Of a stretch of DNA of 64,000 bases, positions 15,601-57,974 are shown in pieces; within the stretch, counting starts at the first letter, position 1; every line of letters begins with the position of its first letter. The DNA lies in the IMG/VR virus record IMGVR_UViG_3300045825_000202, positions 31,793 to 95,792 of that record. The stretch is one strand, 5' to 3'. A program made the position numbers and the translations under genes. This stretch comes from a virus. The notes under the pieces were generated by a model, which saw only the letters and a program-made list of their open reading frames with translations, was not told the origin of the DNA and searched no databases.

Positions 15601-16101
15601 ATGAAATACAGCGAACTAAGAGAAACTATACAAACCGGAGACCTACTAGCTTGGTCTGAGGGAGGTAAGTGGAACTCATGGAGAAATATACAACTTAACT
15701 TAGTTCGTATGGGTACTATGAGTGACTATAACCACGTAGGGGTTGCCTACGTAGTATCTGGAAGAGTATTCGTAGTAGAGGCAGTAGTACCTTATGTAAG
15801 AATTTACCCCTTGTCTAAACTACTGCCCTTCTACTATATTAGAACTAACTTTAGAACTACAGATGCTACTGAAGAGAAGCTCCTACAATATATAGGTACC
15901 CCATACTCTAAGTGGGAGGCTATTAAAGCAGCATTTACTAAAGATACTAATAATACTAAAGTTATGCAGTGTGCCAAACTAGTAAACGACCTATTTACCG
16001 AGTTTGATATAGGATATAAGGGTATCAACGATACTCCTGAAGCTGTCGTAAATTATACTTTAGATAATAGTAATAGTCCTATAAACTATATCAAAGAGTA
16101 A
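15601..16101 (+). CDS. Permuted papain-like (NlpC/P60, YiiX-like) protein
   Basis: IQTGDLL, YNHVGV, VVEA, IGTPY, CAKLV, TP motifs. Confidence 0.75.
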   Translation: MKYSELRETIQTGDLLAWSEGGKWNSWRNIQLNLVRMGTMSDYNHVGVAYVVSGRVFVVEAVVPYVRIYPLSKLLPFYYIRTNFRTTDATEEKLLQYIGTPYSKWEAIKAAFTKDTNNTKVMQCAKLVNDLFTEFDIGYKGINDTPEAVVNYTLDNSNSPINYIKE

Positions 16102-40300: not shown

Positions 40301-41257
40301 CTAGTCAACTCTATGAGTCAGTCTAGGAATCACCTCACCACCCATTATAAGTGCTACAGTACATCCAATTTTTAAATCGAGCATTTCTATATACTTTGGA
40401 TTATTCAATGTCGCACGGGATACTAATTTATCACCAATATAGATTGGTTTAAGTATAGCGGTTGGTGTTACCTTGCCGCTGCGGCCTGTGGACCATTCAA
40501 CCCCTAGTAGTTCAGTCTCTACTGCTTCTTGCCGCGTCTTAAGAGCGTATGCTCCCCGAGGCGACTTAGCAGTATAACCTAACCTAGTAAAGGTAGTATT
40601 ATCATTAATACGAAAGACTGTACCATCACATTCAAAGGTACCATCCAAGCAAGGAACAAAGATAGTATTAAACCCTAATAGTTCTAGAACTAGCATATCA
40701 TCTACATATGTATTAGACTGATATGGAAATACCCCGTAAGCAAAGAAACTAATGTCACGTGTACAAAACTCACTAGAATCTTTTAGATTCAGTGCTCCAG
40801 ATGCGTAGTTGCGACTATTTTCAATATGCTTAGGGGCTACAATCTCGCCAGTAACCTGAACTGTTCCGAACTTTTTAATTTCTAAAGGTACTAGGTTTTT
40901 TCTAGCAATAAAGTGTGCAGTAATATCGCGACCTTCAATACCGTCGCCACGAGTAAGAACCTGAGTAAGTTTCCCATCTAGATAAAGGATAGAAATAGCT
41001 GCACCGTCTAGCTTTAGACTTTTAACTAAGGCATACTCTTGTATAGGTTCGTTACTTTCCCCGACGTAGTACTTCGAGAGAGAATACATCGGATATATGT
41101 GTTTACAAACATTTTCGTGTTGTTTGGCTCCGACTGAGGAATAGTTAATAGACTCAGCCAGATGATCAAACTCTTCATCGCTGATAGTAGGGCTTCCGTT
41201 ATAGTATTGAGTACTTTTTCCATCTAGGTATTCTCTAATATTCATTGTAAAAACCAT
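40301..41257 (-). CDS. ligA: NAD-dependent DNA ligase subunit A (adenylation + OB)
   Basis: YY.G.P.ISDEEFD, KLDG, TRGDG..G.DIT, RNYASG, SRATL.N. Confidence 0.93.
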   Translation of the reverse strand: MVFTMNIREYLDGKSTQYYNGSPTISDEEFDHLAESINYSSVGAKQHENVCKHIYPMYSLSKYYVGESNEPIQEYALVKSLKLDGAAISILYLDGKLTQVLTRGDGIEGRDITAHFIARKNLVPLEIKKFGTVQVTGEIVAPKHIENSRNYASGALNLKDSSEFCTRDISFFAYGVFPYQSNTYVDDMLVLELLGFNTIFVPCLDGTFECDGTVFRINDNTTFTRLGYTAKSPRGAYALKTRQEAVETELLGVEWSTGRSGKVTPTAILKPIYIGDKLVSRATLNNPKYIEMLDLKIGCTVALIMGGEVIPRLTHRVD

Positions 41258-42222
41258 TGTTTAATTGCTGTAGCCAGCGGACTACTACACTCTTTACTTG
41301 TAAAACCATTAGCAATCATAGTATCTGATTCTTCTTTATAGATATCAGACATAACCCATTTTAGAAAATCTCCAGTGTATTTTGGTTCACGAGCAGTAAC
41401 ATGTTCCAAACCTTGTTCTAGTCTAGATGTAGTTACTACAGACGCTACAAATTCACGAATACTCTCAATCTTTTCTACATCTACTGGAGCTAACGTCTTT
41501 ACTTTAGATGACGAGTGCTTTTCACCTTTAACTTTAAAGCGAAGCGTATTACTGTTATATACAGTAGTCCAGACAATACCTTCACCTACTAGTGGATGTG
41601 GAAAGTCTTTACCTAGGATCTGTCGTGAAACTGGGCAATCTTGTTCTACTTCAGCGGTTTTAGCGATTAGAGCGGATTGTGCGACCTCGGGTCGGGCAAA
41701 GTCAATATCTAGTGTAAATGTAGGGAAGTCATATATCGTTGGAATAATACCATCACATACGTCGTATACGTCTAGATGGCTAAAGAATACTGTAGACTCA
41801 GCATTTTCACTGACACGAATAGCAAAAACAATAAACTGCTTAGGAATAAAGTTTAACCCTACACCTTTTTGAATATTGCCACCACACCATTCACCAAAGA
41901 TTTGAATAGTATCTCTAATTCCTACTTTATAGTGAAAGCAGATCCTATCAAATACTTGTTGAAATAGACCCGCATTTTGTATTGTCCAAACATGAGAACC
42001 TGCGTTATCTGATTCAAATGTAGTAATACGTTCACGGCTTTGCGTATAAATTTCCCCGCTAGGAGCACGGCAAATTCCATGATTAGTACCATGAAGTTTT
42101 ACTGTTCCAGTAAAGGTAAGAGTAGGTAGCGGTACACCATGATACGAACAATTATACTTAATGTGCTTAATAACACTTCTGAATTGTTCAATTGAAGGAA
42201 ATGCGATATGTTGTTTGTTCAT
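41242..42222 (-). CDS. RNA ligase, Rnl2 family
   Basis: KLHGTN motif I, FGEWCG..IQKGV, GEGIVW, FKVKGEKH. Confidence 0.85.
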   Translation of the reverse strand: MNKQHIAFPSIEQFRSVIKHIKYNCSYHGVPLPTLTFTGTVKLHGTNHGICRAPSGEIYTQSRERITTFESDNAGSHVWTIQNAGLFQQVFDRICFHYKVGIRDTIQIFGEWCGGNIQKGVGLNFIPKQFIVFAIRVSENAESTVFFSHLDVYDVCDGIIPTIYDFPTFTLDIDFARPEVAQSALIAKTAEVEQDCPVSRQILGKDFPHPLVGEGIVWTTVYNSNTLRFKVKGEKHSSSKVKTLAPVDVEKIESIREFVASVVTTSRLEQGLEHVTAREPKYTGDFLKWVMSDIYKEESDTMIANGFTSKECSSPLATAIKQWFLQ

Positions 42223-45201: not shown

Positions 45202-45254
45202 GATATTTTCTCTGTTTAAGCGTTAATTATACAGGGATTTATCAAACTAATCAA
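45202..45254 (-). promoter_or_regulatory. Repeated early promoter + leader cassette (variant copy)
   Basis: TTGATT-N17-TATAAT-TAACGCTTAAACAGAGAA. Confidence 0.75.
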
Positions 45255-45264
45255 GTCTAAAATT

Positions 45265-45516
45265 TTATTCCTTAGGGTATAGCCCGTTATATAGTGCAAC
45301 ACGGAAACGTTCACCAAAAGAGGGTACAATACAGCTAAGAAATACTAATGGGGCAATAATAGTATTGAGTACTACAAATACTGGGTATAGAATATATAGC
45401 TGTAGAGTAGGTAAGTTCTCAGTTTTACGAAGTGAAATAACTGGTATCACTAACTCATAGATAGAAGTTAGTGATGTAGTTACCGCAAATAGTACGTATA
45501 ATAGAAATACTTCCAT
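45265..45516 (-). CDS. Small two-TM membrane protein
   Basis: Two hydrophobic stretches. Confidence 0.6.
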   Translation of the reverse strand: MEVFLLYVLFAVTTSLTSIYELVIPVISLRKTENLPTLQLYILYPVFVVLNTIIAPLVFLSCIVPSFGERFRVALYNGLYPKE

Positions 45517-46566: not shown

Positions 46567-47115
46567 TCAAGTCTGAATTTTTACTAGTGTACTTACTTCT
46601 TCTAGGGATACTGGAGTATAATCTATTAAGCACTCTACGCTAACATTAGTATACCTAGTATCTGGTACTAGGGTATCGCCTAATGTTACTACGTTACTAT
46701 GTAAATGGCCGTGTATGCATCCTTTCCATCTAGATAAACTATTTGGGTGGATAGGAATATGACTAAGAATAAATCCGTTTAGCTGATGGACTGCTCTAAT
46801 ATCCTTAAAATACTTTAGATATTCACTTGCCTTATCTAGATCATGGTTACCTTTGATAAGAATCTTTTCCCCGTTCATTCTACTAAGAATAGGTAAAAAC
46901 TTCTTATTCATGGCAATATCGCCTAAACAGTACCACTTATCTGATGGTTGTACTACACGATTATGTTGCATAATAATATATTCGTTCATATGCGTAACGT
47001 CTTCAAAGACGCGTAAGGAAGTAACCCCGTCACTACGCTTAAAATTAAGGATTGCTGCGTGACCTAAATGTAAGTCACTTGATAGAAATATATTAGACAT
47101 AATAAAAATAGCCAC
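46567..47115 (-). CDS. Calcineurin-like metallophosphoesterase
   Basis: SDLHLGH, LGD, GNHD, SHIP, HGHLH. Confidence 0.9.
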   Translation of the reverse strand: MAIFIMSNIFLSSDLHLGHAAILNFKRSDGVTSLRVFEDVTHMNEYIIMQHNRVVQPSDKWYCLGDIAMNKKFLPILSRMNGEKILIKGNHDLDKASEYLKYFKDIRAVHQLNGFILSHIPIHPNSLSRWKGCIHGHLHSNVVTLGDTLVPDTRYTNVSVECLIDYTPVSLEEVSTLVKIQT

Positions 47116-47217
47116 TCAAGGTGGCTTATATAAGTTGTAGGCCGGTGAGGTATCCACAGTATCTCAAGTACTGTTTCCCATTCTCCGTTTACTTTCCTTA
47201 CCTACGTGCTAGCAATA

Positions 47218-47292
47218 TGGCAATGCATTGAGGGACTAGAACTCTAGTAAGTGGATAGACAATCGCAGTAATAACCTCTATACGAACGCACT
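47218..47292 (-). tRNA. Degenerate tRNA-Asp(GUC)
   Basis: Loop UUGUCUA, GCCA end; mismatched anticodon and T stems. Confidence 0.5.
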
Positions 47293-47359
47293 ATTGGTTT
47301 AGTACTTATTTATACCTGCTATACGTATTCACAGGTATAAATAAGTACTAAACCAATAG
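47291..47359. repeat. 28-bp perfect inverted repeat, 13-nt loop
   Basis: ctattggtttagtacttatttatacctg / caggtataaataagtactaaaccaatag. Confidence 0.92.
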
Positions 47360-47529
47360 CCCTAGTTGCAACTAGGTATCTATTTCGACGATGGTGATGT
47401 GGCACCCACAATACATATTCGTCCAGGGGTTTCGATATGTGTTCTTTTAACTAAAGTGTTTTACTGGGATAAACTAAACGGTGATATAACCGCTATGAGA
47501 ATTGAACTCATGTTTATTTAGTTAAAATA

Positions 47530-47636
47530 TGAAGCAGGTTGATAGATTCGAACTACCGATTAGGATACTACTAAGTGGACGCCTCACTACTGTAGTTTGC
47601 GAAACTTTTCCTCAGTCGCTCTCGCCTTAAACCTGC
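47530..47636 (-). ncRNA. tRNA-like RNA with acceptor stem and T arm but a branched core
   Basis: GCAGGUU/AACCUGC; GGUAG-UUCGAAU-CUAUC; no canonical anticodon arm. Confidence 0.6.
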
Positions 47637-47643
47637 GTAATTT

Positions 47644-47720
47644 TGGTGGACCCTAACCGACTTGAACGGTTGACATACGCCACGTAAAGACGTCGCTCTA
47701 ACCAACTGAGCTAAGGGTCT
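47644..47720 (-). tRNA. tRNA-Val(UAC)
   Basis: Cloverleaf, loop UUUACGU, CCA. Confidence 0.85.
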
Positions 47721-47727
47721 ATTTATT

Positions 47728-47801
47728 TGGAGCATCTTATCAGAATCGGACTGATGATACCTACTTGGAAGGAAGGTGTTTTACCATTAAACTAAAGATG
47801 C
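47728..47801 (-). tRNA. tRNA-Gly(UCC)
   Basis: Loop CUUCCAA, U73, CCA. Confidence 0.85.
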
Positions 47802-47802
47802 A

Positions 47803-48415
47803 TTACTCTACTATATACCTATTACCTTTGCATATATTATCATAAGCAGATAGGTACTGTAAATTACTTATAACATGAAGCCCTGATACTTTTATACCTC
47901 TTAATGGTATAATATGATCTACGTGGTAGCCTTTAGGGCATAAGTTATAAAAATTGGATATAGCTAAGGACTCCGACCATTTAGGGGTTCTTTTTGCTAT
48001 ATGTATCTTATCTTGTGTATTGCGTAAGTTCTTACATACTGCACATTCACTCTCTAATCCATCTACTATACATTTATTATTATGAAATTCTGAGAAAGCT
48101 TTTATAGTCTTACAAGTATTACAGTACTTGTATTGTATTGTAGATAATAAGGTTAATCTCCAAGATGGGTGACTAGAAGTACTGTTAGCGAATGTGCAGC
48201 TCCTATCAGGAAAAATCGGTATTAGTATTTGTTTTATAGACTGTTTTATAGGATTGTCTGTATATTCTAGTTTAGTAGCAGCCTCAGTTATTGAGCTAGT
48301 TGATATTAAAGCTCTTATTAAATCTAGTACTGTATACCCAGACAGTCCTCTAATTTTCTTTTTTTAAGATTTGAGAAGGGCTTAGTCCTAATTTATGACT
48401 TATTAATAATTCCAT
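47803..48415 (-). pseudogene. HNH endonuclease frameshifted at an A7 run (not in the ORF track)
   Basis: C-terminal RTPKW..YHVDHIIPLRG..VSGLHV..NLQYL...N..KGN; span is 613 nt (3n+1); removing one A at 48359-48365 joins the ATG (GGAG RBS) to this frame. Confidence 0.78.
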
Positions 48416-48513
48416 TATTACTCCTATTATTGTATACGTATAATTATACACTAATAGACTCGAAACTACAAGTACAAAATTCTAGATCTAAAAATACCAA
48501 TCCCGCATTATTC

Positions 48514-48738
48514 TTACCGCCTCATCTGGGCAGTTTCTGTAGCCGCTGCAACTGAAAATACTGGTTGCAAGCAACTTTTGTGGATGATAGCAATACCAAC
48601 CATTTCTATTCCTGTATATTGCATTACTTCTTTCAAAGCTGTAGAACCGCCAGGGGTTGATAGACTAGGAGGTCTAGTAGTAACTCGTGAGGTTCCCATC
48701 TTTGGGTTAACATTACCAATATTAAAGACTTTTTTCAT
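48514..48738 (-). CDS. Hypothetical protein
   Basis: YTG....GIA..HKS.L.PVF..A.MRR pattern recurrent in phages. Confidence 0.7.
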   Translation of the reverse strand: MKKVFNIGNVNPKMGTSRVTTRPPSLSTPGGSTALKEVMQYTGIEMVGIAIIHKSCLQPVFSVAAATETAQMRR

Positions 48739-48892
48739 ATGTATCTAGTACGCTTTTAAAGTGGTCTTCGAACTTCTTACGATTAACTTTAGCCTCTTTA
48801 TCGTCTTTAGAAGATTTCCAGATAAGGAATAATTCTAAAGCCTTAGAGCCTTTAACTAACCTATGTTGCTTATATATGGTTTCTGTTTTCAT
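48722..48892 (-). CDS. Small basic protein (56 aa), probably leaderless
   Basis: MKTETIYKQHRLVKGSKALEL..; ATG 6 nt after TATAAT of TTGATT-N17-TATAAT. Confidence 0.55.
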   Translation of the reverse strand: MKTETIYKQHRLVKGSKALELFLIWKSSKDDKEAKVNRKKFEDHFKSVLDTYEKSL

Positions 48893-48939
48893 AGAATAAT
48901 TATAACAAGTTTAAGCGAGATAATCAAGTGCGAATTTAG

Positions 48940-49013
48940 TGGTGTGACAACGGGTTTCTATCCCTATCTGTCGCTTTCACAGAGCGAAGTGCTAACATTA
49001 CACTATTGTCACC
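48940..49013 (-). tRNA. tRNA-His(GUG), atypical T arm
   Basis: Loop CUGUGAA, G-1 present, CCA. Confidence 0.7.
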
Positions 49014-49016
49014 ATA

Positions 49017-49304
49017 TCAAAAGGGCACGTCATCCGTCCAACTATCGTCAAATGTATAACTAATAGGTTTATATGATTCTACGGGTTTTTCTGGAGGTTC
49101 CCAGTTCTTATACCCAGCTATCTCTTTAATAGTTTCTAAAACTATATCCTGATATTTTACGATACCCTGCTTATCTAGGAAGATTAGGTATTCATAATGC
49201 TCTTCTATAATGTCGCAAACTCGACAACCCTTTAGCTTGCCAAAGCTCAATATGTCGGTTAGCGCAAGTTTAGGGTCTTTTAGTTGTTTAAAGTTAATTG
49301 CCAT
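49017..49304 (-). CDS. Hypothetical protein (ExoX C-terminal/DUF3820-like FGK domain)
   Basis: L.FGKLKG..V.DI.....EYL; acidic tail ending DDVPF. Confidence 0.65.
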   Translation of the reverse strand: MAINFKQLKDPKLALTDILSFGKLKGCRVCDIIEEHYEYLIFLDKQGIVKYQDIVLETIKEIAGYKNWEPPEKPVESYKPISYTFDDSWTDDVPF

Positions 49305-49378
49305 ATATAAACGTAGTGCTCTCCAGTAACCCTAGCGAAGTCGCGACTATCTATCCTCTTACTACGTTTATATATGGC
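49300..49378 (-). ncRNA. Stem-closed element A (18-bp perfect closing stem)
   Basis: gccatatataaacgtagt / actacgtttatatatggc. Confidence 0.6.
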
Positions 49379-49451
49379 CTATCCCAAAGGGCTCAAACCT
49401 TCAGTCTCTTCGTTCGTAGCGAAGTGCATTATTCAGTTATGCTAAAGAGAG
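49375..49451 (-). tRNA. tRNA-Arg(ACG)
   Basis: cttcg-CUACGAA-cgaag, GCCA end; weak acceptor stem. Confidence 0.72.
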
Positions 49452-49760
49452 AAATTGTTTATGTTAGGCTCCCAGTATACCCATGGATTAACCACTATAT
49501 ACCGCCGTGTACTCTTCGGTATAAACAAAACCGGAGCTAGTAGGGATTTAGTCTGATAATCCCAAAAGAGTTGTGCTGATCGCGCTCAGCTTTAGACTAT
49601 ACGCTACCGTATAGTACAGGGGCCTTCACATTGCCCTTACGTCTTTTTATGCTATGAGCATAACGACTATATAATTAGCAACCAGCTGGTTTCTTTGGTT
49701 TCTTACCAGGTGTGGGTGTATCCATTGGCATAGGGGATTTCTTTGGTTTACAGGCCATAA

Positions 49761-50381
49761 TTATTCACTTTCAGGTTTAGGTTTAGTTGCTTCTTCTAAG
49801 TCAGCTTCTTGTTGAAGCAGGACTGTTCGTTGTTCCATTCTGGAAACTAGTTCCTCTACATCCATCCATAAGTCTTTTCCATCTAGAACAGATATAATCT
49901 CTGCTTCTGTTAGAAAGTGCTTATACACTTCACGTAGAAGATTCTCTGACCATTTACGTTCGTACTGCGCTTGTCCATATATTTCATGCCCCTTACCCCC
50001 AACTCCACCGGAGTAGTTATGAACCATGAAACTTGAGAAAGGACTAATCTCAAACCTATCAGCAGATAGGAAGATCATAGTAGCTGCACTCATGCAGTCT
50101 CCTTCGACCGATACGGTAACATGTGCAGCTGTTTCTGCTAGTACACGCATCCATTGAATAGCTGTTGCAAGAACTCCGCCACATGAATTTAGATAAATCT
50201 TTACTTCATCCTCTTCAGTTAGATGACGAATAGTATCAAAGTCTTCCACATAGTCTTCTGGTCCGGTAATAGGTCCTGAAACATAGAACTCATGCATCTT
50301 TGCTAGAATTTTAGGAGGAATCTTACCTGGTTTACCTAGAATAATATTCTCTAGATAATCATCATCACTATTTTTGCTCAT
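49761..50381 (-). CDS. ClpP-like protease
   Basis: IYLNS.GG, CMSAATMIFL, FMVHNYSG, DLWM...E. Confidence 0.85.
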   Translation of the reverse strand: MSKNSDDDYLENIILGKPGKIPPKILAKMHEFYVSGPITGPEDYVEDFDTIRHLTEEDEVKIYLNSCGGVLATAIQWMRVLAETAAHVTVSVEGDCMSAATMIFLSADRFEISPFSSFMVHNYSGGVGGKGHEIYGQAQYERKWSENLLREVYKHFLTEAEIISVLDGKDLWMDVEELVSRMEQRTVLLQQEADLEEATKPKPESE

Positions 50382-50389
50382 GAAGTCCT

Positions 50390-51157
50390 TTAGTTTTTAA
50401 TACTGCGAAGAATATTGGGACGTATACTACGCATTACTTTACATTGTTCCGGATAAGAATTGTGTACCCAAGTATGTCTATCTCCACATTTAATGTGGCT
50501 TACTAATTTTTCATTAGTATTAGTTATTTCGCCTATACGTTTCATGGATAGGTTGGTTCTATACAGTAAAGAAAATATTCTTAATATTGTTATTTTTGAA
50601 TGCTTAAAAGAATTTCTATGAAATTGCCCTATATTAGAGGAATTAACTCTATTTTGCATTAAGAGGTATTGCTTAGGATAAGAATCTTTTAACCATAAAT
50701 GTGAGAAACCACTTTTTATATGCCCTGCTAAATGTATATTTGTATTAGTAATAGTAATACTAGCTATTACTCCTAGGGCTAACTCCGTTTTATATAAAAG
50801 AGAAAACACTCTTAATACTGTAATTCTTGAGTATTTTGAACTACCATGATTAGTACCTGTACCACTTCCGACTACACCAGGTTCTGCTATATTAAGGCCT
50901 ACTGATGGACTTAAGGCATTAAATTCTTTACACCAACATAGTTCTAATGGTAGTAACCTATCTATACTACATTCCTCTAAAACATAAGAGGTAGGGGTTC
51001 CGTAGTTATTATAAGATTTTTGTAGTTTATAATTATAGTGTGAACCTCTTTTAAGAGAGTTAATATGTTGTCTAAGTCGTTCCTCAATATTCTGTGATTG
51101 ACCTATATACACTAAATCTTGCTCCCACCAATAAAGTGAGTAAATTCCTATTGTCAT
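50390..51157 (-). CDS. GIY-YIG homing endonuclease
   Basis: GIYSL..VYIGQS.NIE.R..H; duplicated SK.S.IT.LR.FSLLY unit. Confidence 0.9.
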   Translation of the reverse strand: MTIGIYSLYWWEQDLVYIGQSQNIEERLRQHINSLKRGSHYNYKLQKSYNNYGTPTSYVLEECSIDRLLPLELCWCKEFNALSPSVGLNIAEPGVVGSGTGTNHGSSKYSRITVLRVFSLLYKTELALGVIASITITNTNIHLAGHIKSGFSHLWLKDSYPKQYLLMQNRVNSSNIGQFHRNSFKHSKITILRIFSLLYRTNLSMKRIGEITNTNEKLVSHIKCGDRHTWVHNSYPEQCKVMRSIRPNILRSIKN

Positions 51158-51243
51158 TTTATATTATATTCTCCGTGAAAGAAAAAGACTATCTAGTATT
51201 CACGGTACTAGCAGGGCCGCTAAGCCTTTTCGTCTATAAGTAA

Positions 51244-51315
51244 AAGTAGGTATTAGATTTTAACTAACCTTGTAAGGATTGAAGTCCAGACGCCTAAACA
51301 CTCGGCCAACCTACT
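51244..51315 (-). tRNA. Degenerate Cys-like tRNA with CU-UCA-A anticodon loop
   Basis: AGUAGGU/ACCUACU acceptor, U73, GCCGAGUGUUUAGGC D arm; weak anticodon stem, no CCA. Confidence 0.45.
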
Positions 51316-51326
51316 ATAAATTGAAA

Positions 51327-51439
51327 TGGTAATACCTGGAATCGAACCAGGAAACTAACCCCTTCTTCCGGGCCTATCTGTCATCAACACTAGTACAGGA
51401 GCCAGATTATCGGGGTTCCCGTGTAGTTAGTATATTACC
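51327..51439 (-). ncRNA. tRNA-like RNA with an extended helix replacing the anticodon arm
   Basis: GGUAAUA/UAUUACC; CCUGG-UUCGAUU-CCAGG; AACCCC/GGGGUU closing a ~50-nt insert. Confidence 0.62.
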
Positions 51440-51531
51440 ATAATTAAGTAACCTAGTACGGATATAGGTGTTTCACTTACGTAGGCTAAGTCGGCCGCCT
51501 GCTTACTAACCAGAGTGCACTTAATTATGGT
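51437..51531 (-). ncRNA. Stem-closed element B (13-bp closing stem)
   Basis: accataattaagt / acttaattatggt. Confidence 0.55.
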
Positions 51532-51619
51532 GGAAAGCAGAGGAGTCGAACCCCATCCTATTTCTAAGAACCTGGTTTTCAAGGCCAGTCGCAGGACCAA
51601 CCCCGCTGCATTACTTTCC
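51528..51619 (-). tRNA. tRNA-Ser(UGA), 8/4-type fold
   Basis: GGAAAGUA/UGCUUUCC 8-bp acceptor, 4-bp T stem, long variable arm, loop CUUGAAA, CCA. Confidence 0.75.
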
Positions 51620-51623
51620 TAAT

Positions 51624-51694
51624 TGGATACGGGAGACGCACTCGAAGCGTCTAGGCGGAATTTATGAGACTTGCCTATACCCTGAATTCCCGCA
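51624..51694 (-). tRNA. Short tRNA-Met(CAU)-like gene with reduced D arm
   Basis: UGCGGGA/UCCCGUA, loop CUCAUAA, GACGC-UUCGAGU-GCGUC, CCA; 71 nt. Confidence 0.6.
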
Positions 51695-51704
51695 TTTAAC
51701 TATC

Positions 51705-51778
51705 TGGTTGCCCCTACTGGTTACAATCCAATGTCTTTCCTTTATCAGAGGAAGGCTCTACCATTGAGCTAAGGTGCA
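51705..51778 (-). tRNA. tRNA-Ile(GAU)
   Basis: ttcct-CUGAUAA-aggaa, CCA. Confidence 0.78.
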
Positions 51779-51787
51779 GTATTTAAC

Positions 51788-51880
51788 TGGAAGACGGTCT
51801 GAGGTTCGAACTCAGGAAGCTACTTTAGGTAACTTGGTTCTTTAGCAAAGAACTGCAATCGGCCACTCTGCCAACCGTCC
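51788..51880 (-). tRNA. tRNA-Ser(GCU)
   Basis: gttct-UUGCUAA-agaac, long variable arm, CCA. Confidence 0.88.
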
Positions 51881-52242
51881 AAAATAATAACTTGAATTAG
51901 TATACCCTAAATATATTAATTCAAGTTCTATTAAGATACTTGAAGCTTCGAGTTTGGACAAGGGCTGGCTACCTTTAGAGCTTGAATTAATGCTATGTTA
52001 TTTATGTTCGGACTTACTACCGATTCCTGCTAGAGAAGTCATATTATTTTTGCTGGGGTCTACTGATAAAGTATACTGGACTGACTACCAGTTTAAGCAC
52101 TTACCCATGTTTAGTGCTATCAACACTAGATTACCATACTTTCGAGGCTGGATACTCCTAGCTTATAGTTAGTAGGTCAGATCATTAACCAATTCTAAAG
52201 TCTAGCGTATGTAAGCATCTACAAACTTGTAAATGCTAATTC

Positions 52243-52545
52243 TTAAATATCTCCATAGTCCCATACACGTGGGCCATGCTTTTCTATAAAATCTGCTAAA
52301 CCTTCTTCTGAGGTAGCAGTTACCTCATACTCAAAGTCCCCTGCTACTGTACCATAGTCTATGTGGTATGCTGTAAAATCATTCACCCACATATAGTAGT
52401 TTTCATGAATAAGGCCAGTAATAGTCCAACCATCTGAATGGGTAAATGAACGTACCCCCGTCTCATGAATATGAGACGGGCCATATACCTCTGTAGTTTC
52501 TAAAGTATGGGCCATTCCATCGTCTGCATATGTTTTGATTATCAT
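52243..52545 (-). CDS. Hypothetical protein
   Basis: AAGGA RBS; Y.WVNDF.A.H..YG.V.GDFE..WDYGDI. Confidence 0.7.
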   Translation of the reverse strand: MIIKTYADDGMAHTLETTEVYGPSHIHETGVRSFTHSDGWTITGLIHENYYMWVNDFTAYHIDYGTVAGDFEYEVTATSEEGLADFIEKHGPRVWDYGDI

Positions 52546-52556
52546 AGGTTTCCTTA

Positions 52557-52715
52557 ATTAAAGATTAGACTCTGTGCATATTCTAATGGGTTTAACAAGG
52601 TATTACCTTAATACACCGTTCAGCATCAATAGTCCATACGGGTAATTAGTCGGTATGATACTATATCGTAGCTGTTTCATATTACTTCTGCAGAAGCCAG
52701 AGTTTAATCTTTAAT
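52557..52715 (-). ncRNA. Stem-closed element C (17/18-bp closing stem) directly behind a promoter
   Basis: attaaagattagactctg / cagagtttaatctttaat; TTGAAT-N17-TATAAT at 52733-52761. Confidence 0.62.
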
Positions 52716-52777
52716 GAACTTTCTAAGTAATAATTATATCAAATTTAATTGATAGATTCAAGTTTAAATTCGCTTTG

Positions 52778-52852
52778 CTCCGGCAATTGGAGTTGAACCA
52801 ATTTAATCAGAGAGTAACAGTCTCGCCTATGTCCATACTTAGGTCTACCGGA
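52778..52852 (-). tRNA. tRNA-Asn(GUU), no encoded CCA, leader paired to trailer
   Basis: gaga-CUGUUAC-tctc; ctttgc/gcaaag extends the acceptor helix. Confidence 0.7.
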
Positions 52853-52870
52853 GCAAAGAAAATTTAAGGG

Positions 52871-52942
52871 CAGAGGTGTCAGGATTCAAACCTGAGACGA
52901 CAGAGTCAAAGTCTGTTGTGTTTTCTGCTACACCACACCTCA
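52871..52942 (-). tRNA. tRNA-Gln(UUG)
   Basis: acaga-CUUUGAC-tctgt; 3' end reads GCCC rather than GCCA. Confidence 0.75.
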
Positions 52943-53386
52943 GTAATTAATAAGTCTTAGTCGATAGAAACTGTTCGTAAGTTCGTTCTAGATGTTCAAC
53001 TTCTGTAATTGAAGTAGGTTCGTGAGCATTAACCCATTCATCTAGAGATGGTTTCTCTTTAAACCAAGATCGTAAAATATTGAACAATTCTTTCATTTGA
53101 CTTCCATTACTTGTTTAGTAAATTTACTAAAAGCATCTTCATATAGTTGCTTATTAGCTTTAGCTTCTGTACTAAGCGTAGATAAATAGTTGGCAGGGTA
53201 GGCTACCATACTTTTATAAAACTCGGTAAAATAATCTACTAAAAGTAGGTTACTTGCGAGCACGGTTATACTCAGCGTTTTTCTTCAAACGAGCAGATGC
53301 AGCAGCTTTTTCTGCTTTATCATGATCGCGTTTAGCTTGAGTATCTGAGTCAGGGTTCTTATACATTTAGTTCCTTGTTAAAAATC

Positions 53387-53522
53387 ATATTTAAGAATAC
53401 TACTATCTTTCAACCTTACTATATACTTAGATGCTATGCATATATCAAGCGGTATATAGGTTTTAGGAGTCTTACTTCATAGGGCCCTAGGTAGTAAGCC
53501 AGTCCTTAGTATTCTTAAATAT
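53387..53522 (-). ncRNA. Stem-closed element D (16-bp perfect closing stem)
   Basis: atatttaagaatacta / tagtattcttaaatat. Confidence 0.58.
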
Positions 53523-53524
53523 AG

Positions 53525-53604
53525 TGAACTCATGTGACAGGATTCGAACCTGTATTAGCTCCGAAAAGGGGTGCTTTATTATCCAATTATAAGACTATGA
53601 GTTC
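53525..53604 (-). ncRNA. tRNA-like element with perfect T arm and unassignable anticodon
   Basis: GAACUCAU/AUGAGUUC; ACAGG-UUCGAAU-CCUGU. Confidence 0.5.
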
Positions 53605-53653
53605 TTCAGGTCATGACTCCTGAATATGGCTACTTTTAAGCCTACCCACCTAT

Positions 53654-53765
53654 CATATTTAACAGTACTAAAGCCCGCACTAACGACGTTCAACGATACT
53701 AGAATTACTTCTGCGCGAGGGTTTGTTCTCGTGGGTTTCAATAACTAATAATACTGTTAAATATG
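53654..53765 (-). ncRNA. Stem-closed element E (14-bp closing stem)
   Basis: catatttaacagta / tactgttaaatatg. Confidence 0.58.
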
Positions 53766-53825
53766 GTATAATATACTCACGGTTTATCAATCCGTTCCAG
53801 ACTACACTGACAAGTATATTATACC
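53765..53825 (-). ncRNA. Stem-closed element F (13-bp closing stem), abutting E
   Basis: ggtataatatact / agtatattatacc. Confidence 0.5.
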
Positions 53826-54018
53826 GTAAACTTAATGTACTAGCTTACTACAAGTAATATCGTTCTTGTAAACTAGAGGGTTTCTATCAACCCATTGATC
53901 TCGTCCAAGTACCCAGTTATGCTGAGATAACTGAGGCCAGATATTAGTTTTAGCTTTACGTCCAATAGTAAGAGTTACCTCATGACTAGGGTCTAATGAT
54001 TCTAATAGAGTAATCGCT

Positions 54019-54171
54019 TCATGGGCTTGCATTATCTTTAATCCTATATTGTTCTTCAATAAGACGCTTTAATAGCGCTACCTTACGGTAAGCAGACCCA
54101 CTAAGTGGATGCTCGTCTTGTTCGGCAATTGCCTTTTTTAGTGCTTTTTCTAAACCTTTAATATACTTCAT
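54019..54171 (-). CDS. Small basic protein (50 aa) behind the repeated promoter cassette
   Basis: MKYIKGLEKALKKAIAEQ..; GGAG RBS. Confidence 0.6.
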   Translation of the reverse strand: MKYIKGLEKALKKAIAEQDEHPLSGSAYRKVALLKRLIEEQYRIKDNASP

Positions 54172-54221
54172 ATATTCTCCGTTTAAGCATTAATTATACA
54201 ATGTTTTTATTAGAGATTCAA
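54172..54221 (-). promoter_or_regulatory. Repeated early promoter + leader + RBS cassette
   Basis: TTGAAT-N17-TATAAT-TAATGCTTAAACGGAGAAT. Confidence 0.85.
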
Positions 54222-54797
54222 GTTTAGATTTTTCTAGGTACTTGATACATTTCGTCCGAGTTAGCGGCTTCAACCCACTGACTGAGAAATACTTTAATAG
54301 GAATACCTATATTAGGTATATTTGTAGTAAATAACCACATATTAGGCGTAACTATAAAATAGTTCTTTAAACCATTCTAGCATAGACGCTAAACGTTTAC
54401 GCTCCCACGTAGCTATATAGGAACGGTATGCCCTAAGTTTCTTTTCTTTAATAGATTTTTTCATTATATTCCTAGCGTATATGTCAATGCTCACTTCTCC
54501 CATCACAGGAATATTAACTTGGACCACCTAGTATGTAGACTCAAATAGTACCAAGGATACTAGCTCTTGGTGAAGCATTGACATATACGTTCTAGCAAAA
54601 GAAAAGGGAACCGAAGCTCCCTGTTCTAAATAGAATAAGGGTATCTTATGTATTTATTGTACTTTGTGTATTATGATTAAGCATAGGAACCCTTATATTA
54701 GTACAGGTTACTTATCCTGTGTCTAGAACTTAATTAGACAGGTTTTACAATCTACGACACGACGGCTTTAATTGCCTAATGTGGTGGCTTTGTTGTT

Positions 54798-54876
54798 TGG
54801 TGGACCTTGTGTGAATCGAACACACCTGAAATCCTGCTTGCAAAGCAGGCGACCACGCCATGCAGTCCCAAAGCCC
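54798..54876 (-). tRNA. tRNA-Ala(UGC)
   Basis: G3:U70 pair, cctgc-UUUGCAA-gcagg, CCA. Confidence 0.85.
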
Positions 54877-54917
54877 ATTAATCTTAGTGTTTACTACTAA
54901 ATAAGCACTAAGATTAA

Positions 54918-54991
54918 TGGTCAAGGATGGAAGAATCAAACTTCCGCTTTAGCGTCCCAAACGCAATGTGATATCATTTCACTAATCCCTG
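54918..54991 (-). tRNA. tRNA-Pro(UGG)
   Basis: C1:G72, loop UUUGGGA, CCA. Confidence 0.8.
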
Positions 54992-55289
54992 ATTAGTCTT
55001 TTATTAACCCAGAGCGACGAATCTGGGGATGTATTGTTGTATGTCAGAGTATCATCTATCTCTGTGTCTAAGTAATAATTATAACACTTTGGAAGTCGCG
55101 AAGCAAGTGTAAATTTTTATTGCTATACTTGACTATACAGATACGTAAATACTTCTCTAATATCAACTTCCACAGGTTTCTTATTACCTAATGCTTTATT
55201 AGGACTATTCCACCACTTTTCTGCTAGAAGTCTTGGGCCTAGTAAGTTTGCTAAAATAATGTCACAGTGTTCTTTATAGTTAACCATAT

Positions 55290-55520
55290 TTATTTAACTA
55301 AGGTTTGATTACGTAGAGCAGCAACTGCGTGACAAATATTTTCCCATTCATCAAAGCAAATACGTACTTCGTTAACTTTATCATCTGAACCATCTTGTTC
55401 AAATACTAGAAATGCTCCACCACACTCATCTTCTAGTTTAATATGAATAACTTCTCCATATACTGGATTATCAGATACTTGACCTACGCTAATTGCTGTG
55501 ATTGTGTTAAAGTATTTCAT
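55290..55520 (-). CDS. Hypothetical protein
   Basis: 76-aa ORF downstream of tRNA-Leu. Confidence 0.6.
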   Translation of the reverse strand: MKYFNTITAISVGQVSDNPVYGEVIHIKLEDECGGAFLVFEQDGSDDKVNEVRICFDEWENICHAVAALRNQTLVK

Positions 55521-55534
55521 GGTTTAGTGTAGGT

Positions 55535-55621
55535 TGGTTCCGGGTATCAGAATCGAACTGATACGTCCTTTCGGACATTTGAGTTTAAATCAAATGCGGC
55601 TGCCAGTTACGCCAACCCGGA
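55535..55621 (-). tRNA. tRNA-Leu(UAA)
   Basis: tttga-UUUAAAC-tcaaa, GUCC-GAAA-GGAC variable arm, CCA. Confidence 0.88.
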
Positions 55622-55652
55622 ATTATTAAGTTAATTTTAAGAAAGAACTAAG

Positions 55653-55735
55653 TGCGGGCGACTGGGGTCGAACCAGCACGCCACAAGGACCGGTGCTTCT
55701 AAGGCACCGAAGGCTACCAATTACATCACGCCCGC
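55653..55735 (-). tRNA. tRNA-Leu(UAG), no encoded CCA, leader paired to trailer
   Basis: ggtgc-CUUAGAA-gcacc; agaactaagt/acttagttct extends the acceptor helix by 10 bp. Confidence 0.85.
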
Positions 55736-55750
55736 ACTTAGTTCTCTACC

Positions 55751-55854
55751 CATAATTAAGTAATCAATTAAACTTTACTGCGATTAACTAGCGAGTAGCA
55801 GATTATCATTCTACAAATACGGCACAAGTGCTAAAGTTTGATTACTTAATTATG
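55751..55854 (-). ncRNA. Stem-closed element G (17-bp perfect closing stem)
   Basis: cataattaagtaatcaa / ttgattacttaattatg; inner aacttta/taaagtt helix. Confidence 0.6.
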
Positions 55855-55949
55855 ATGTCTAGCTAAATCCACGCTAGACTATCAGTTGTTAAGCACCGCA
55901 GTAGAATAGTCTCTACTATTGGTCTGATCTTAATCTCTTAGTGATATTT

Positions 55950-56024
55950 TGGAGTCACATAGCAGAATTGAACTGCTATTATTCGGATGAAAACCGAATG
56001 TTCTAACCATTAAACTAATGTGAC
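55950..56024 (-). tRNA. tRNA-Glu(UUC)
   Basis: ttcgg-UUUUCAU-ccgaa, CCA. Confidence 0.85.
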
Positions 56025-56032
56025 AAATTATC

Positions 56033-56124
56033 TGGTAATAGCGATAGGAATCGAACCTATATGAACCAATTATCTGTTGCTTACGGGATATAAATCCGCC
56101 GTTTTACCGTTAAACTACGCTATT
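56033..56124 (-). tRNA. tRNA-Ile(UAU) with long variable arm
   Basis: Loop UUUAUAU, ~22-nt variable region, canonical D and T arms, CCA. Confidence 0.72.
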
Positions 56125-56556
56125 ATATTCTGCCGGTTTCAACCACTCACCCAAGACTCCATAAAAACTATTAGTAAAACGCCAAACGATATGCGATAAA
56201 CTCAGTTATAGAATTAATTTACCGGATTAGGGTTAACTTTGGTAGAATTGCTGTACTACTACTCGTGGTGCCTACACATAGGTAAACTAATGCAAACCAT
56301 AATCTATGGAATATCTAGCCAACAGCAATTAGCCTTGGCACTTTACTAATCTTTCTAAGCAATAATTATATCAAATTTCAAAAGACTTTTCAAGTAAGAA
56401 AAATCAGCGGTCTGCGGTGCGCCCTTTTAATAATGTTTCGACAATTTATATTGCCTTAGGCCTAGGTGGTACGCTTTGCAGGATTATCCGCTGAGTTTAA
56501 ACTTATTATTTCTTTTGATACACTAATTATACATCATTTACTTGCTCTGCGCAAGT

Positions 56557-56754
56557 CTATTTTTTATTTGCCCTATATACCTTAATAGCATCAGCATCTA
56601 GTGATGCGTATACACGAAATTTGTCCTTACCTTTAGAATCGTATAGATCACTAGCCATTTTAGCTAGTGAATCTTGTTTATCTGGTGTAAGTACTGCTGA
56701 ATAGCGGCTCATAAAGGCATCAACTAAGAACTGTTTTGAATATGCTAAAGCCAT
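56557..56754 (-). CDS. Hypothetical early protein
   Basis: Directly behind the repeated promoter/RBS cassette. Confidence 0.72.
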   Translation of the reverse strand: MALAYSKQFLVDAFMSRYSAVLTPDKQDSLAKMASDLYDSKGKDKFRVYASLDADAIKVYRANKK

Positions 56755-56805
56755 TATATTCTCCGTTTAAGCATTAATTATACAGCGTTTTAGCGAGACA
56801 TTCAA
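56755..56805 (-). promoter_or_regulatory. Repeated early promoter + leader + RBS cassette
   Basis: TTGAAT-N17-TATAAT-TAATGCTTAAACGGAGAAT. Confidence 0.85.
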
Positions 56806-56813
56806 GTCTAAAT

Positions 56814-56885
56814 TTACTGTGCTAAACTATCTTTATAATCAAGGAAGTCTTGAAAGTCATCATAATCTTGTTCGTTTGGTAACAT
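56814..56885 (-). CDS. 23-aa acidic micropeptide
   Basis: MLPNEQDYDDFQDFLDYKDSLAQ; sole ORF between two cassette copies. Confidence 0.6.
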   Translation of the reverse strand: MLPNEQDYDDFQDFLDYKDSLAQ

Positions 56886-56937
56886 ATTAATTCTCCGTTT
56901 AAGCATTAATTATACAATGTTTTAGATGAACAATCAA
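56886..56937 (-). promoter_or_regulatory. Repeated early promoter + leader + RBS cassette
   Basis: TTGATT-N17-TATAAT-TAATGCTTAAACGGAGAAT. Confidence 0.85.
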
Positions 56938-57710: not shown

Positions 57711-57923
57711 TTAGGGCCTCTTACCTGATGGAAATAGTGAACGCCATACATATCCTAGAGGTTGGAGTTTAGGCTCATTAGCTAGGAATTTTTTCAAACG
57801 ATAGACTGAGATCCCATACGATTCCGATAAATCACTAATATGGGAACCTGTCCTATAAAATTCTAGGATGTCTTCTTCGTCTTGGCAAGAGAAATTAGTA
57901 GTATACTTATACTCTGAATCCAT
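57711..57923 (-). CDS. Small HTH-like protein
   Basis: I..FY..G..I.DLS..YGIS...LKK.L; behind the repeated cassette. Confidence 0.65.
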   Translation of the reverse strand: MDSEYKYTTNFSCQDEEDILEFYRTGSHISDLSESYGISVYRLKKFLANEPKLQPLGYVWRSLFPSGKRP

Positions 57924-57974
57924 TATATTCTCCGTTTAAGTATTAATTATAATGCTTTTCAGGATACAATTCAA
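57924..57974 (-). promoter_or_regulatory. Repeated early promoter + leader + RBS cassette
   Basis: TTGAAT-N17-TATAAT-TAATACTTAAACGGAGAAT. Confidence 0.85.

Follow-up and report, generated by a model that had tools for sequence, protein, structure and literature searches.

Helices between the phage tRNA genes

The tRNA region of this distant T5-like phage raises the question of what the long A/U-rich stems that recur between its tRNA genes are, and whether their significance lies in the stems or in the sequence they enclose. The first-pass annotation of the window, the whole 64,000-nucleotide stretch analyzed here, had listed a series of such stems. All are present, at or within a few bases of the positions it gave, the one at 56403-56495 being weaker at about 7-8 bp. 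Further stems, absent from that annotation, occur at 54476-54589, at 47445-47527, and as helices extending the acceptor stems of tRNA-Asn and tRNA-Leu(UAG).

Between 46 and 58 kb of the window, 10 inverted repeats are perfect over at least 13 bp and span at least 45 nt. Such repeats are far rarer in shuffled sequence: 200 dinucleotide shuffles gave a mean of 0.05 and never more than 1. In the part of the 95.8-kb genome beyond the tRNA region, just two comparable long-range inverted repeats occur, the remainder being compact hairpins of 25-43 nt. A tRNA region of 37% G+C, with several stems made of A and U only, might be thought to produce hairpins by chance, or the stems might be ordinary intrinsic terminators. 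However, a G+C-rich stem followed by a U-tract was found in none of the elements, which span 46-181 nt, and an Rfam search of the elements matched tRNA models only, with no family for the hairpins. We attach next to no probability to this explanation, and a chance origin of the stems is refuted by the shuffle comparison together with their conservation and covariation, described below.

Anchoring on RNA landmarks

Read on the transcribed (minus) strand, on which all of the elements described here lie, the 5' arm of a helix frequently starts at a tRNA's encoded CCA and opens with the consensus CCA-UAUUUAAGU, while the 3' arm runs as far as the opening bases of the following tRNA or the AUG of an ORF. 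In each helix, of about 14-28 bp, the trailer of an RNA module is thus paired to the leader of the module that follows, which may be the start of a tRNA, a tRNA-like RNA or the AUG of an ORF, and the sequence between the arms is thereby looped out. Most stems are 14-20 bp long, almost bulge-free and nearly pure Watson-Crick. Taken together, the window and its relatives yielded 88 long-range repeats; the start coincides with a tRNA 3' end in 15 of them, against an expectation of 0.9, and the end with a tRNA 5' end in 8, against an expectation of 0.7. That the stems open with related sequences, as annotated earlier, is borne out by position counts in 24 CCA-anchored stems from the window and relatives: the first position after CCA is U in 23 and the second A in 21, position +7 is A in 20, and position +8 is G in 16. 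The 'CA' previously seen at the openings is real as well, but its origin in the CCA end of the upstream tRNA had been missed. Structure alone does not explain the shared opening sequence.

The spacer hairpin at 54875-54920 fills the entire gap between tRNA-Pro and tRNA-Ala with a 19-21-bp stem and an 8-nt loop. Its 5' arm starts on the CCA of tRNA-Pro, and its 3' arm ends in U plus G1 and G2 of tRNA-Ala. Orthologs of this spacer in related phages measure 110 nt (L018 11415-11524), 112 nt (G002) and 185 nt (L087), with covarying stems; in L085 a 178-nt element abuts tRNA-Ala and starts 28 nt after the CCA of tRNA-Pro. Behind tRNA-Arg(ACG), an 18-bp perfect helix with a 43-nt core (49300-49378) joins GCCAU, at the end of the tRNA, to AUGGC, where ORF 49017-49304 has its start codon. 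This conserved minus-strand ORF of 95 aa, whose AUG lies in the 3' arm, was found to have no Shine-Dalgarno sequence at normal spacing. Seven positional orthologs of the element, 61-116 nt long, all keep CCAUA...UAUGG(C), with compensatory change at 10 of 13 stem positions. The tRNA-Ser(UGA) gene (51532-51619, minus strand) was missed by ARAGORN and scores 34 bits to the tRNA-Sec model, and it shares 96.6% identity with a tRNA-Ser(tga) that ARAGORN did call in L059. Anchored on the CCA of this gene is the element at 51437-51531, a 13-14-bp helix that opens with CCAUAAUUAAGU and whose 3' arm adjoins the 5' GG of a tRNA-like RNA at 51327-51443; the ortholog in G002 (R2 8859-8950) has an identical opening and a different core.

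Several elements lie where a tRNA gene is, or appears to be, missing or degenerate. The element at 53651-53768 (20-bp stem, 90% paired) is the ortholog of the relatives' post-tRNA-Lys(UUU) elements and retains ACCAUAUUUAAC, though tRNA-Lys(UUU) itself is missing in this phage. It adjoins a 67-nt hairpin (53762-53828, 16-bp stem), whose 3' arm supplies 'ACCA' and which is partially similar to sequence downstream of the post-Thr elements of L061 and L070. The hairpin at 47291-47359 has a 28-bp perfect stem and a 13-nt loop; in its orthologs (L059 9419-9496, L061 242-347, L063 3496-3581) the stem stops at the 5' end of tRNA-Asp, a gene that this phage appears to lack or to carry in degenerate form. 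The 136-nt element at 53387-53522, with a 16-bp perfect A/U stem, lies after a degenerate tRNA-Lys-like gene (53525-53604) and before a small ORF.

The remaining elements occupy other positions among the RNA modules. The 104-nt element at 55751-55854, a 17-bp perfect stem opening with CAUAAUUAAGU, lies between a conserved RNA of about 95 nt (55855-55949) and the leader helix of tRNA-Leu(UAG); its ortholog (L018 8806-8894) preserves the stem through compensatory changes but not the core. An 83-nt element (47445-47527) has an 11-bp stem and a T-arm-like hairpin in its core, and a 114-nt one (54476-54589, 16-bp perfect stem) has a terminator-like site before it and a small ORF downstream. The pair at 51883-51991, immediately before tRNA-Ser(GCU), consists of two mutually exclusive 16-bp helices with one arm in common (51889-51927 and 51915-51991), its 5' part being 87% identical to L060 5439-5492. 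Upstream of tRNA-Ile(UAU) lies a promoter-proximal structured RNA of 181 nt (56170-56350) with a 16-17-bp helix (88%); in an alignment with L018 7871-8088 and L085 1375-1590, compensatory change affects 15 of its 36 pairs, and the transcribed strand shows G-U pairs. The weaker element at 56403-56495 (93 nt) lies between two promoters, with about seven G+C-rich closing pairs and, by inspection, a candidate ortholog at L018 7787-7871. A further 165-nt element (52554-52718; 21-bp stem, 90%) is preceded by a promoter (52761-52733) and followed by ORF 52243-52545 with its Shine-Dalgarno sequence and AUG. Some elements directly behind promoters had been described as lacking an ORF; since an ORF with a Shine-Dalgarno sequence follows this one, it is a structured 5' leader rather than an RNA gene without an ORF.

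Some helices enclose real tRNAs. In this phage they extend the acceptor stems of two CCA-less tRNAs, tRNA-Asn (52764-52867; same design in L060 2965-3069) and tRNA-Leu(UAG) (55644-55745; 17 bp, perfect; 83% identical to its ortholog, L085 1694-1800).

Conservation of pairing in related phages

About ten related uncultured phages retain helices behind the same tRNAs (Pro, Lys-UUU, Arg-ACG and Thr-UGU), and across genomes with helices after the same tRNA species the phosphoesterase is just 51-68% identical. Each 5' arm pairs with its own 3' arm at 0.94-1.00, compared with 0.52-0.79 when arms of different orthologs are combined. Compensatory (double) changes occur at 34 of 52 stem positions, making for strong covariation. 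Judged from these alignments, the position and pairing of the helices are shown to be under selection, and the inserts are not.

Near-pure Watson-Crick stems would also be expected of a DNA-level palindrome, which counts against an RNA-level role. Recombination, template switching or insertion around tRNA genes rich in homing endonucleases could have produced the repeats as cruciforms or palindromes, and the GIY-YIG and HNH endonuclease genes in the region, as well as the varying insert size at a fixed site, fit such an origin. Mismatches bear on this in both directions. Overall, G-U exceeds A-C on the transcribed strand (18 versus 8), as expected if RNA is what pairs, but the window's own stems have 6 A-C mismatches and 1 G-U, so the strand argument rests on the relatives. 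Against a DNA-level origin, positions are conserved, with no presence/absence polymorphism of the helices seen among relatives, and the cores are not repeated, so the elements are not MITE-like. Moreover, the stems are anchored on CCA, tRNA position +1 and AUG, landmarks to which a process acting on DNA should be indifferent. We regard the DNA-level origin as quite improbable.

The enclosed cores

The first-pass annotation had proposed a constant clamp around a variable payload, possibly decoy or aptamer RNAs against host defenses. A family of helices with a common opening and unrelated, variable inserts does exist; the payload as the functional part did not hold up. Cores at orthologous sites are unrelated and unalignable, and at one site their size runs from about 150 nt down to an 8-nt loop, with the stem preserved. 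They fold no better than shuffled sequence (z-scores -1.4 to +1.5), no core matched an Rfam family, and no paralogous cores were found within a genome. Cores that are unalignable, variable in size and shuffle-like in folding leave a decoy or aptamer role unsupported, and there is no sign yet of a new defense system. Nor does anything tie the RNA ligase (41242-42222) or the phosphoesterase (46567-47115), suggested to heal or circularize these RNAs, to them.

The clamp might still be a scaffold that delivers and stabilizes an active insert, be it a decoy, an aptamer or a regulator, possibly directed against defense. Its counterparts in T5 accumulate, by annotation, as stable RNAs; the helix of one ortholog, in L070, encloses a tRNA-like insert; and an arms race could underlie the fast turnover of cores. 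A few cores are also 72-82% conserved between relatives, including pairs among the relatives and that of 53387-53522, whose ortholog L060 2090-2208 is 73-84% identical, core included. Weighed against the properties of the other cores, these points leave the scaffold a rather unlikely explanation.

Comparison with known RNAs

As the first pass supposed, the elements correspond to stable RNAs of the T5 tRNA region. The T5 record (NC_005859) annotates RNA III, RNA IV and RNA 2H, as well as RNA I and tRNA-like RNAs 1, 2 and 3, as 'stable RNA with unknown functions'. These RNAs likewise lie on the tRNA strand of the early, tRNA-rich region, measure 70-170 nt and have a terminal closing helix that runs into A/U-rich flanks. 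T5 RNA III lies in a 20-bp helix that begins at GCCA in RNA I and reaches the 5' end of tRNA-His, just as 54875-54920 and 51437-51531 extend from a CCA to the start of the tRNA or tRNA-like RNA that follows, and the surroundings of T5 tRNA-Asn have the design seen at 52764-52867. No sequence similarity of the elements to any T5 RNA was found. T5 tRNAs are mostly trailed by single-stranded CCA-AAUU, whereas in this clade about 10% of tRNAs are followed by the helix design with its common opening, and the T5 RNAs are annotated as stable, a property that the elements here may share.

Other RNAs offer partial parallels. Relatives carry two-piece, circularly permuted tmRNA genes (RF04321, RF01850), in which a hairpin with a variable loop occupies the stretch between an internal CCA and the 5' end of the following RNA piece and needs excision; this spacer has UAAGCAU in common with the tRNA-anchored stems. 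No tmRNA was found in the window's phage, and the flanks of its helices are separate tRNAs or mRNA, not two halves of one molecule. The bacterial and phage Y RNAs (YrlA, bound by Rsr/Ro60) resemble the elements in joining a terminal helix to a variable or tRNA-like module beside phage tRNAs, but there was no Rfam match to YrlA, and no TROVE-domain protein was found in the 95.8-kb genome. The T4 tRNA cluster encodes species 1 and 2 RNAs (rnaC, rnaD), small stable RNAs of unknown function that are co-transcribed and co-processed with tRNAs and, from their description, are comparable as small RNAs accompanying phage tRNAs. RNase III acts on the leader-trailer helices of rRNA operons and at sites between the early genes of phage T7. 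There too a long helix forms from the flanks of an RNA to be released, or a hairpin separates cistrons in a polycistronic phage transcript; the stems here differ in being mostly 14-20 bp and almost bulge-free, and in enclosing a variable insert rather than a conserved RNA.

Proposed processing of the early transcripts

With slightly better than even confidence, we interpret the helices as spacers or processing stalks at the RNA level, belonging to long, polycistronic early transcripts in which tRNAs, tRNA-like RNAs and small ORFs are joined. A nuclease specific for double strands, with host RNase III the likeliest candidate, would cut within the helix, a few pairs beyond the CCA; the short A/U duplex left over would melt, exonucleases would trim back to the CCA, and RNase P would set the downstream 5' end. 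The same cut would free the near-leaderless start codon of the ORF after tRNA-Arg.

The RNase III-like excision proposed earlier is plausible, given stems of 14-23 bp and the fact that T5 RNA III ends in such a helix, although cleavage itself is inferred. In GenBank coordinates, the ends of RNA III fall at helix positions 9 and 7, leaving a 2-nt 3' overhang, an RNase III signature; those of RNA IV and RNA 2H leave overhangs of 1 and 3 nt, not 2. The cleavage pattern of RNase III in E. coli, including the 2-nt 3' overhang, and its in vivo rules have been described (PMC6212723). Against such a cut, most stems, at 14-20 bp, are shorter than the roughly 22 bp that RNase III spans.

The helices might instead stay uncut by RNase III and serve as folding insulators or protective 3' caps that prevent tRNA misfolding, order cleavage by RNase P, RNase E or RNase Z, or gate ORF translation. 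The same anchoring and covariation would result, and the start codon of ORF 49017-49304, sequestered in 7/7 orthologs, and the alternative pairings at 51883-51991 would suit such roles. RNase E prefers RN/WUU, which CCAU-AUUU would fit. Yet a stable helix right on the CCA would shut out the enzymes of normal 3' maturation, which are specific for single strands, and T5 RNA III ends inside its helix with a staggered offset. We consider this reading unlikely.

If the helices are processing stalks, the excised hairpins, with any insert, may persist as stable by-product RNAs like T5 RNA III, RNA IV and RNA 2H. Some cores, those conserved at 72-82%, may have functions of their own.

The tRNA region and its relatives

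The window comes from a virus record of 95.8 kb, of which it covers the right two thirds. The encoded DNA polymerase shares 48% identity with its counterparts in Vibrio phage phi 3 and in T5-like Salmonella and Escherichia phages, and we therefore take the phage to be a distant T5-type phage. A megablast comparison of this region with 50,697 phage records returned zero matches, and sensitive blastn against the phage collection returned matches of tRNA size only and no close relative. Between 46 and 58 kb every gene lies on the minus strand, the strand of all window features described here. ARAGORN identified 15 tRNAs in this interval, and Rfam added tRNA matches at 48943-49012 and 51244-51315. 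ARAGORN missed a tRNA-Ser(UGA) at 51532-51619, in which a C-A mismatch closes the anticodon stem; this gene shares 96.6% identity with tRNA-Ser(tga) of the related locus L059 and 88% with a stretch of Pseudomonas phage PHB09 (14398-14487) that carries no annotation. The interval also contains ClpP-like, GIY-YIG endonuclease and metallophosphoesterase genes, and small ORFs downstream of repeated sigma-70-type promoters. A promoter-leader-RBS cassette, TGTATAATTAATGCTTAAACGGAGAAT, precedes unrelated small ORFs at 54171-54200, 56750-56815, 56886-56916, 57920-57951 and 45204-45274, and an identical copy occurs in the related locus L018 (7506-7535).

For comparison we gathered about ten related tRNA regions, comprising L018, the 18.5-kb contig G002, and eight metagenomic or viral loci found via a phosphoesterase 51-68% identical to that of the window. 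Searching viral contigs for the pattern ATAATTAAGT...ACTTAATTAT yielded mostly unrelated A/T-rich matches and one true relative, L040.

Long helices anchored on tRNA ends

The first-pass annotation had listed a set of long A/U-rich stems between the tRNA genes, and an inverted-repeat search recovered all of them, plus several unlisted ones. In 12 kb there are 10 perfect inverted repeats with arms of 13 bp or more and a span of 45 nt or more, far above the mean of 0.05 in 200 dinucleotide shuffles. Across the genome, almost all such long-range repeats fall within 47-56 kb, the inverted repeats elsewhere being compact, terminator-sized hairpins. Every element folds as predicted. The stems are 14-28 bp long, mostly 17-20. 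Against Rfam 15 at the gathering threshold no element matches any family, the window's matches being to tRNA only; relaxing the search to E<=5 added only meaningless microRNA matches on the perfect hairpin, and the eight related loci returned tRNA and tmRNA only. It had also been noted that most elements lack a terminator U-tract, and indeed none appears in a terminator scan as a G+C-rich stem with a U-tract: the stems are A/U-rich and the elements span 46-181 nt. We therefore rejected an identity as intrinsic terminators, and the excess over shuffled sequence likewise refutes chance hairpins. Nor do these resemble MITE-like mobile elements, as no two cores within any one genome are similar and the sites are conserved across genomes. 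A Y-RNA/Rsr system was rejected too, there being no match to the YrlA model and no TROVE (Ro60/Rsr) protein in the genome.

The related opening sequences of the stems, remarked on in the first-pass annotation, proved, on the transcribed strand, to start at the 3'-terminal CCA of the preceding tRNA, with the consensus CCA-U-A-W-W-U-W-A-G-U across the window and its relatives. The 46-nt hairpin between tRNA-Pro and tRNA-Ala (54875-54920) opens on the CCA of tRNA-Pro and ends with U plus G1 and G2 of tRNA-Ala. The element after tRNA-Ser(UGA) (51437-51531) opens on CCA and reaches, at its other end, the 5'-terminal GG of a tRNA-like RNA, the element at 51883-51932 abuts a tRNA 5' end, and the CCA-less tRNA-Asn and tRNA-Leu(UAG) lie within helices that lengthen their acceptor stems. 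Structured leaders lie downstream of promoters at 52554-52718 and 56170-56350. The former has the motif GCAGAAGUAAU in common with 53651-53768; the motif is missing from orthologs of 53651-53768, and the sharing is probably due to chance or recent.

After tRNA-Arg(ACG), GCCAU of the tRNA pairs with AUGGC at the start codon of a conserved 95-aa ORF (49017-49304) that lacks a Shine-Dalgarno sequence at normal spacing. This AUG pairs with the tRNA-Arg CCA end in 7/7 orthologs, and the mRNA translated for this ORF may be a processed, near-leaderless one. That such helices instead stay uncut, serving as insulators, caps or translational gates, strikes us as rather unlikely.

Conservation of the helices and variability of their cores

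CCA is encoded by 197 of the 208 tRNAs of the window, its relatives and T5, and a CCA-anchored helix follows 23 of the 208. These helices recur after the same tRNA species across genomes, namely Pro(UGG), Lys(UUU), Arg(ACG) and Thr(UGU), and their stems measure 14-23 bp. Fifteen of 88 long-range repeats start on a tRNA 3' end, compared with 0.9 expected from random placement, and eight of 88 end on a tRNA 5' end (0.7 expected). The relatives thus repeat the picture seen in the window.

The first-pass annotation had proposed gathering homologues and looking for covariation, which we scored by script with positions counted from the helix base, because MAFFT misaligned the 3' arms when given the post-Arg set. 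Over positions 4-16 of four positional ortholog sets, the two arms of a helix pair with each other at 94-100%, whereas 5' arms combined with the 3' arms of other orthologs pair at only 52-79%, and compensatory double changes occur at 34 of 52 positions. The helices of the promoter-proximal RNA at 56170-56350 and of the element at 55751-55854 are likewise kept through compensatory changes. The pairing, position and conservation of the helices are demonstrated.

Conserved palindromes might in principle act as DNA. Across all genomes the transcribed strand has 18 G-U against 8 A-C, yet the count is 1 to 6 in the window's stems alone, so this strand test supports an RNA-level role only weakly, and the window count would suit DNA palindromes. 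Anchoring on CCA, tRNA +1 and AUG is the stronger argument for a role at the RNA level, and it makes the DNA-level explanation very improbable.

The enclosed cores behave differently from the helices. Most cannot be aligned between orthologous sites, and lengths vary: the Pro-to-Ala spacer measures 46, 110, 112 or 185 nt in different genomes (in two further genomes, elements of 176-178 nt abut tRNA-Ala), and the post-Lys element can be as short as 41 nt or as long as 124 nt. At the post-Arg(ACG) site of the related locus L070 (6449-6564) the helix surrounds a sequence resembling a tRNA, which scores 40.8 bits with the Rfam tRNA model and which ARAGORN calls a 'tRNA-Phe(aaa)' with a long insert; the same site in other genomes holds short unrelated cores. 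Decayed tRNA is at best a minority origin, a T-arm-like motif (E<0.01) being found in only 5 of 74 cores versus 0-2 in shuffles. Since cores vary while helices persist, selection acts mainly on the helix, leaving the insert usually free to change.

The first-pass annotation had cast the cores as payloads, possibly acting as decoys or aptamers, a role that the data do not support. An insert acting as a small RNA is consistent with the minority of cores that are 72-82% conserved, roughly equal to coding sequence (53387-53522 with the related locus L060, and two pairs among relatives). Most orthologous cores are unalignable, however, and core-only folding energies are ordinary (z -1.4 to +1.5), and we consider active inserts unlikely.

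The window's phage has about 18 tRNA genes versus 24 or more in relatives. A weak tRNA-Lys-like relic (21 bits, 53525-53604) lies at the site of the second tRNA-Lys(UUU) of locus L085, and no tRNA-Asp was detected behind the 28-bp hairpin (about 47215-47290), where relatives carry one. This suggests that tRNA genes are being lost from the window's phage while the flanking helices are kept.

Other conserved RNAs lie nearby. A non-coding RNA of about 95 nt directly 3' of tRNA-Glu (55855-55949) is 86% identical over its 3' half to L018 8717-8805, with an invariant 7-bp hairpin, GUCUAGC...GCUAGAC, and its sequence is much better conserved than the adjoining hairpin cores. An ORF-free stretch 5' of tRNA-Arg(ACG) (49458-49667), conserved in locus L063 (80% over 132 nt), L059 and G002, is a candidate conserved ncRNA. 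Two long tRNA-like RNAs of 107 and about 115 nt (47530-47636 and 51327-51443) have an intact acceptor stem and T arm without a normal anticodon arm; they resemble the T5 'tRNA-like stable RNAs' RNA 1 and RNA 2, and the first is 76% identical to L070 9778-9870, between tRNA-Phe and tRNA-Asp.

Counterparts among T5 stable RNAs and look-alikes in phage tmRNA genes

In its GenBank record T5 has eight 'stable RNAs with unknown functions' marked between tRNA genes, and RNA III, RNA IV and RNA 2H have terminal helices that run on into A/U-rich flanks. Like the window's elements, they are non-coding, lie on the tRNA strand inside the tRNA cluster, and are closed by a terminal helix. The RNA III helix (15604-15723 of the reverse-complemented T5 locus, NC_005859 26000-46000) runs from GCCA of RNA I to the first bases of tRNA-His, the design seen in the window at 54875-54920 and 51437-51531. 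Blastn between RNA I, III, IV or 2H and the elements described here, in the window as in its relatives, gave no link. The earlier comparison with T5 thus holds for architecture, and the elements are counterparts of the T5 stable RNAs in a distant T5-like clade, sharing architecture without sequence homology. T5 tRNAs mostly have a single-stranded CCA-AAUU trailer, and the helix-followed tRNAs of the window's clade have CCA-UAU; these may be two different 3'-processing signals.

Permuted two-piece tmRNA genes (Rfam RF04321, RF01850) of the betaproteobacterial type lie within the tRNA clusters of five relatives: L070 5207-5581, L073 6706-7069, L059 3961-4330, L060 6786-7114 and L087 8808-9125. 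No tmRNA was found in the window's own genome; because its relatives carry this type, a betaproteobacterial host is hinted at. The segment cut out of these tmRNAs is a hairpin beginning directly after CCA, with UAAGCAU in common with the tRNA-anchored stems. Such a segment is flanked by the acceptor-piece CCA and the 5' end of the coding piece of a permuted tmRNA gene, and as the window's genome has no such gene, its elements are not of that kind. One could see in the CCA-anchored clamp a general phage 'RNA cassette holder', a conserved stem excised by itself or by RNase III, through which many uncultured water phages, with their two-piece tmRNA genes, would express and release quickly exchanged small RNAs, some of them directed at tRNA enzymes or at host defences that target tRNAs. 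In that case diversifying selection rather than neutral decay would shape the hypervariable cores. We regard this as distinctly unlikely.

A proposed role in precursor processing

We lean towards the elements being stalks for processing or spacing within polycistronic tRNA/mRNA precursors. Each helix joins a module's trailer to the leader of the module after it, and we infer that it would be cut, probably by host RNase III, which would therefore release both neighbouring modules, while the looped-out hairpin may persist as a stable by-product RNA. The phage genome has no RNase III gene. RNase III spans about 22 bp, and its double cleavage leaves 2-nt 3' overhangs (PMC6212723). A substrate would have a continuous helix of about two turns (some 20-22 bp), against the 14-28 bp, mostly 17-20, of the stems here. 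Excision by an RNase III-like activity, as the first-pass annotation had it, is plausible: by analogy, the GenBank-annotated ends of T5 RNA III (helix positions 9 in the 5' arm and 7 in the 3' arm) give a 2-nt 3' overhang, but those of RNA IV and RNA 2H give 1 and 3 nt. Our search of the open literature found no paper describing the processing of the T5 stable RNAs.

Circularisation of the hairpins by RNA ligase, also suggested earlier, gained no support, as no link between ligase and hairpins was found. The ligase (326 aa, 41242-42222; PF09414, 48.8 bits) and the metallophosphoesterase (46567-47115) may form a tRNA repair set.

What the small stable RNAs of phage tRNA clusters do (T4 species 1 and 2, T5 RNA I-IV) has been a question since the 1970s-80s. 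Our analysis offers a concrete, testable reading of one class of them, as looped-out spacers of helices that join a tRNA CCA to the start of the next gene. Should the inserts matter instead, a widespread small-RNA delivery scaffold would be exposed. If the elements are processing stalks, annotators could use the helices to locate tRNA ends and degenerate tRNAs missed by ARAGORN, the cut might free a near-leaderless start from which the post-Arg ORF is translated with no Shine-Dalgarno sequence, and such helices would punctuate polycistronic phage tRNA/mRNA precursors.
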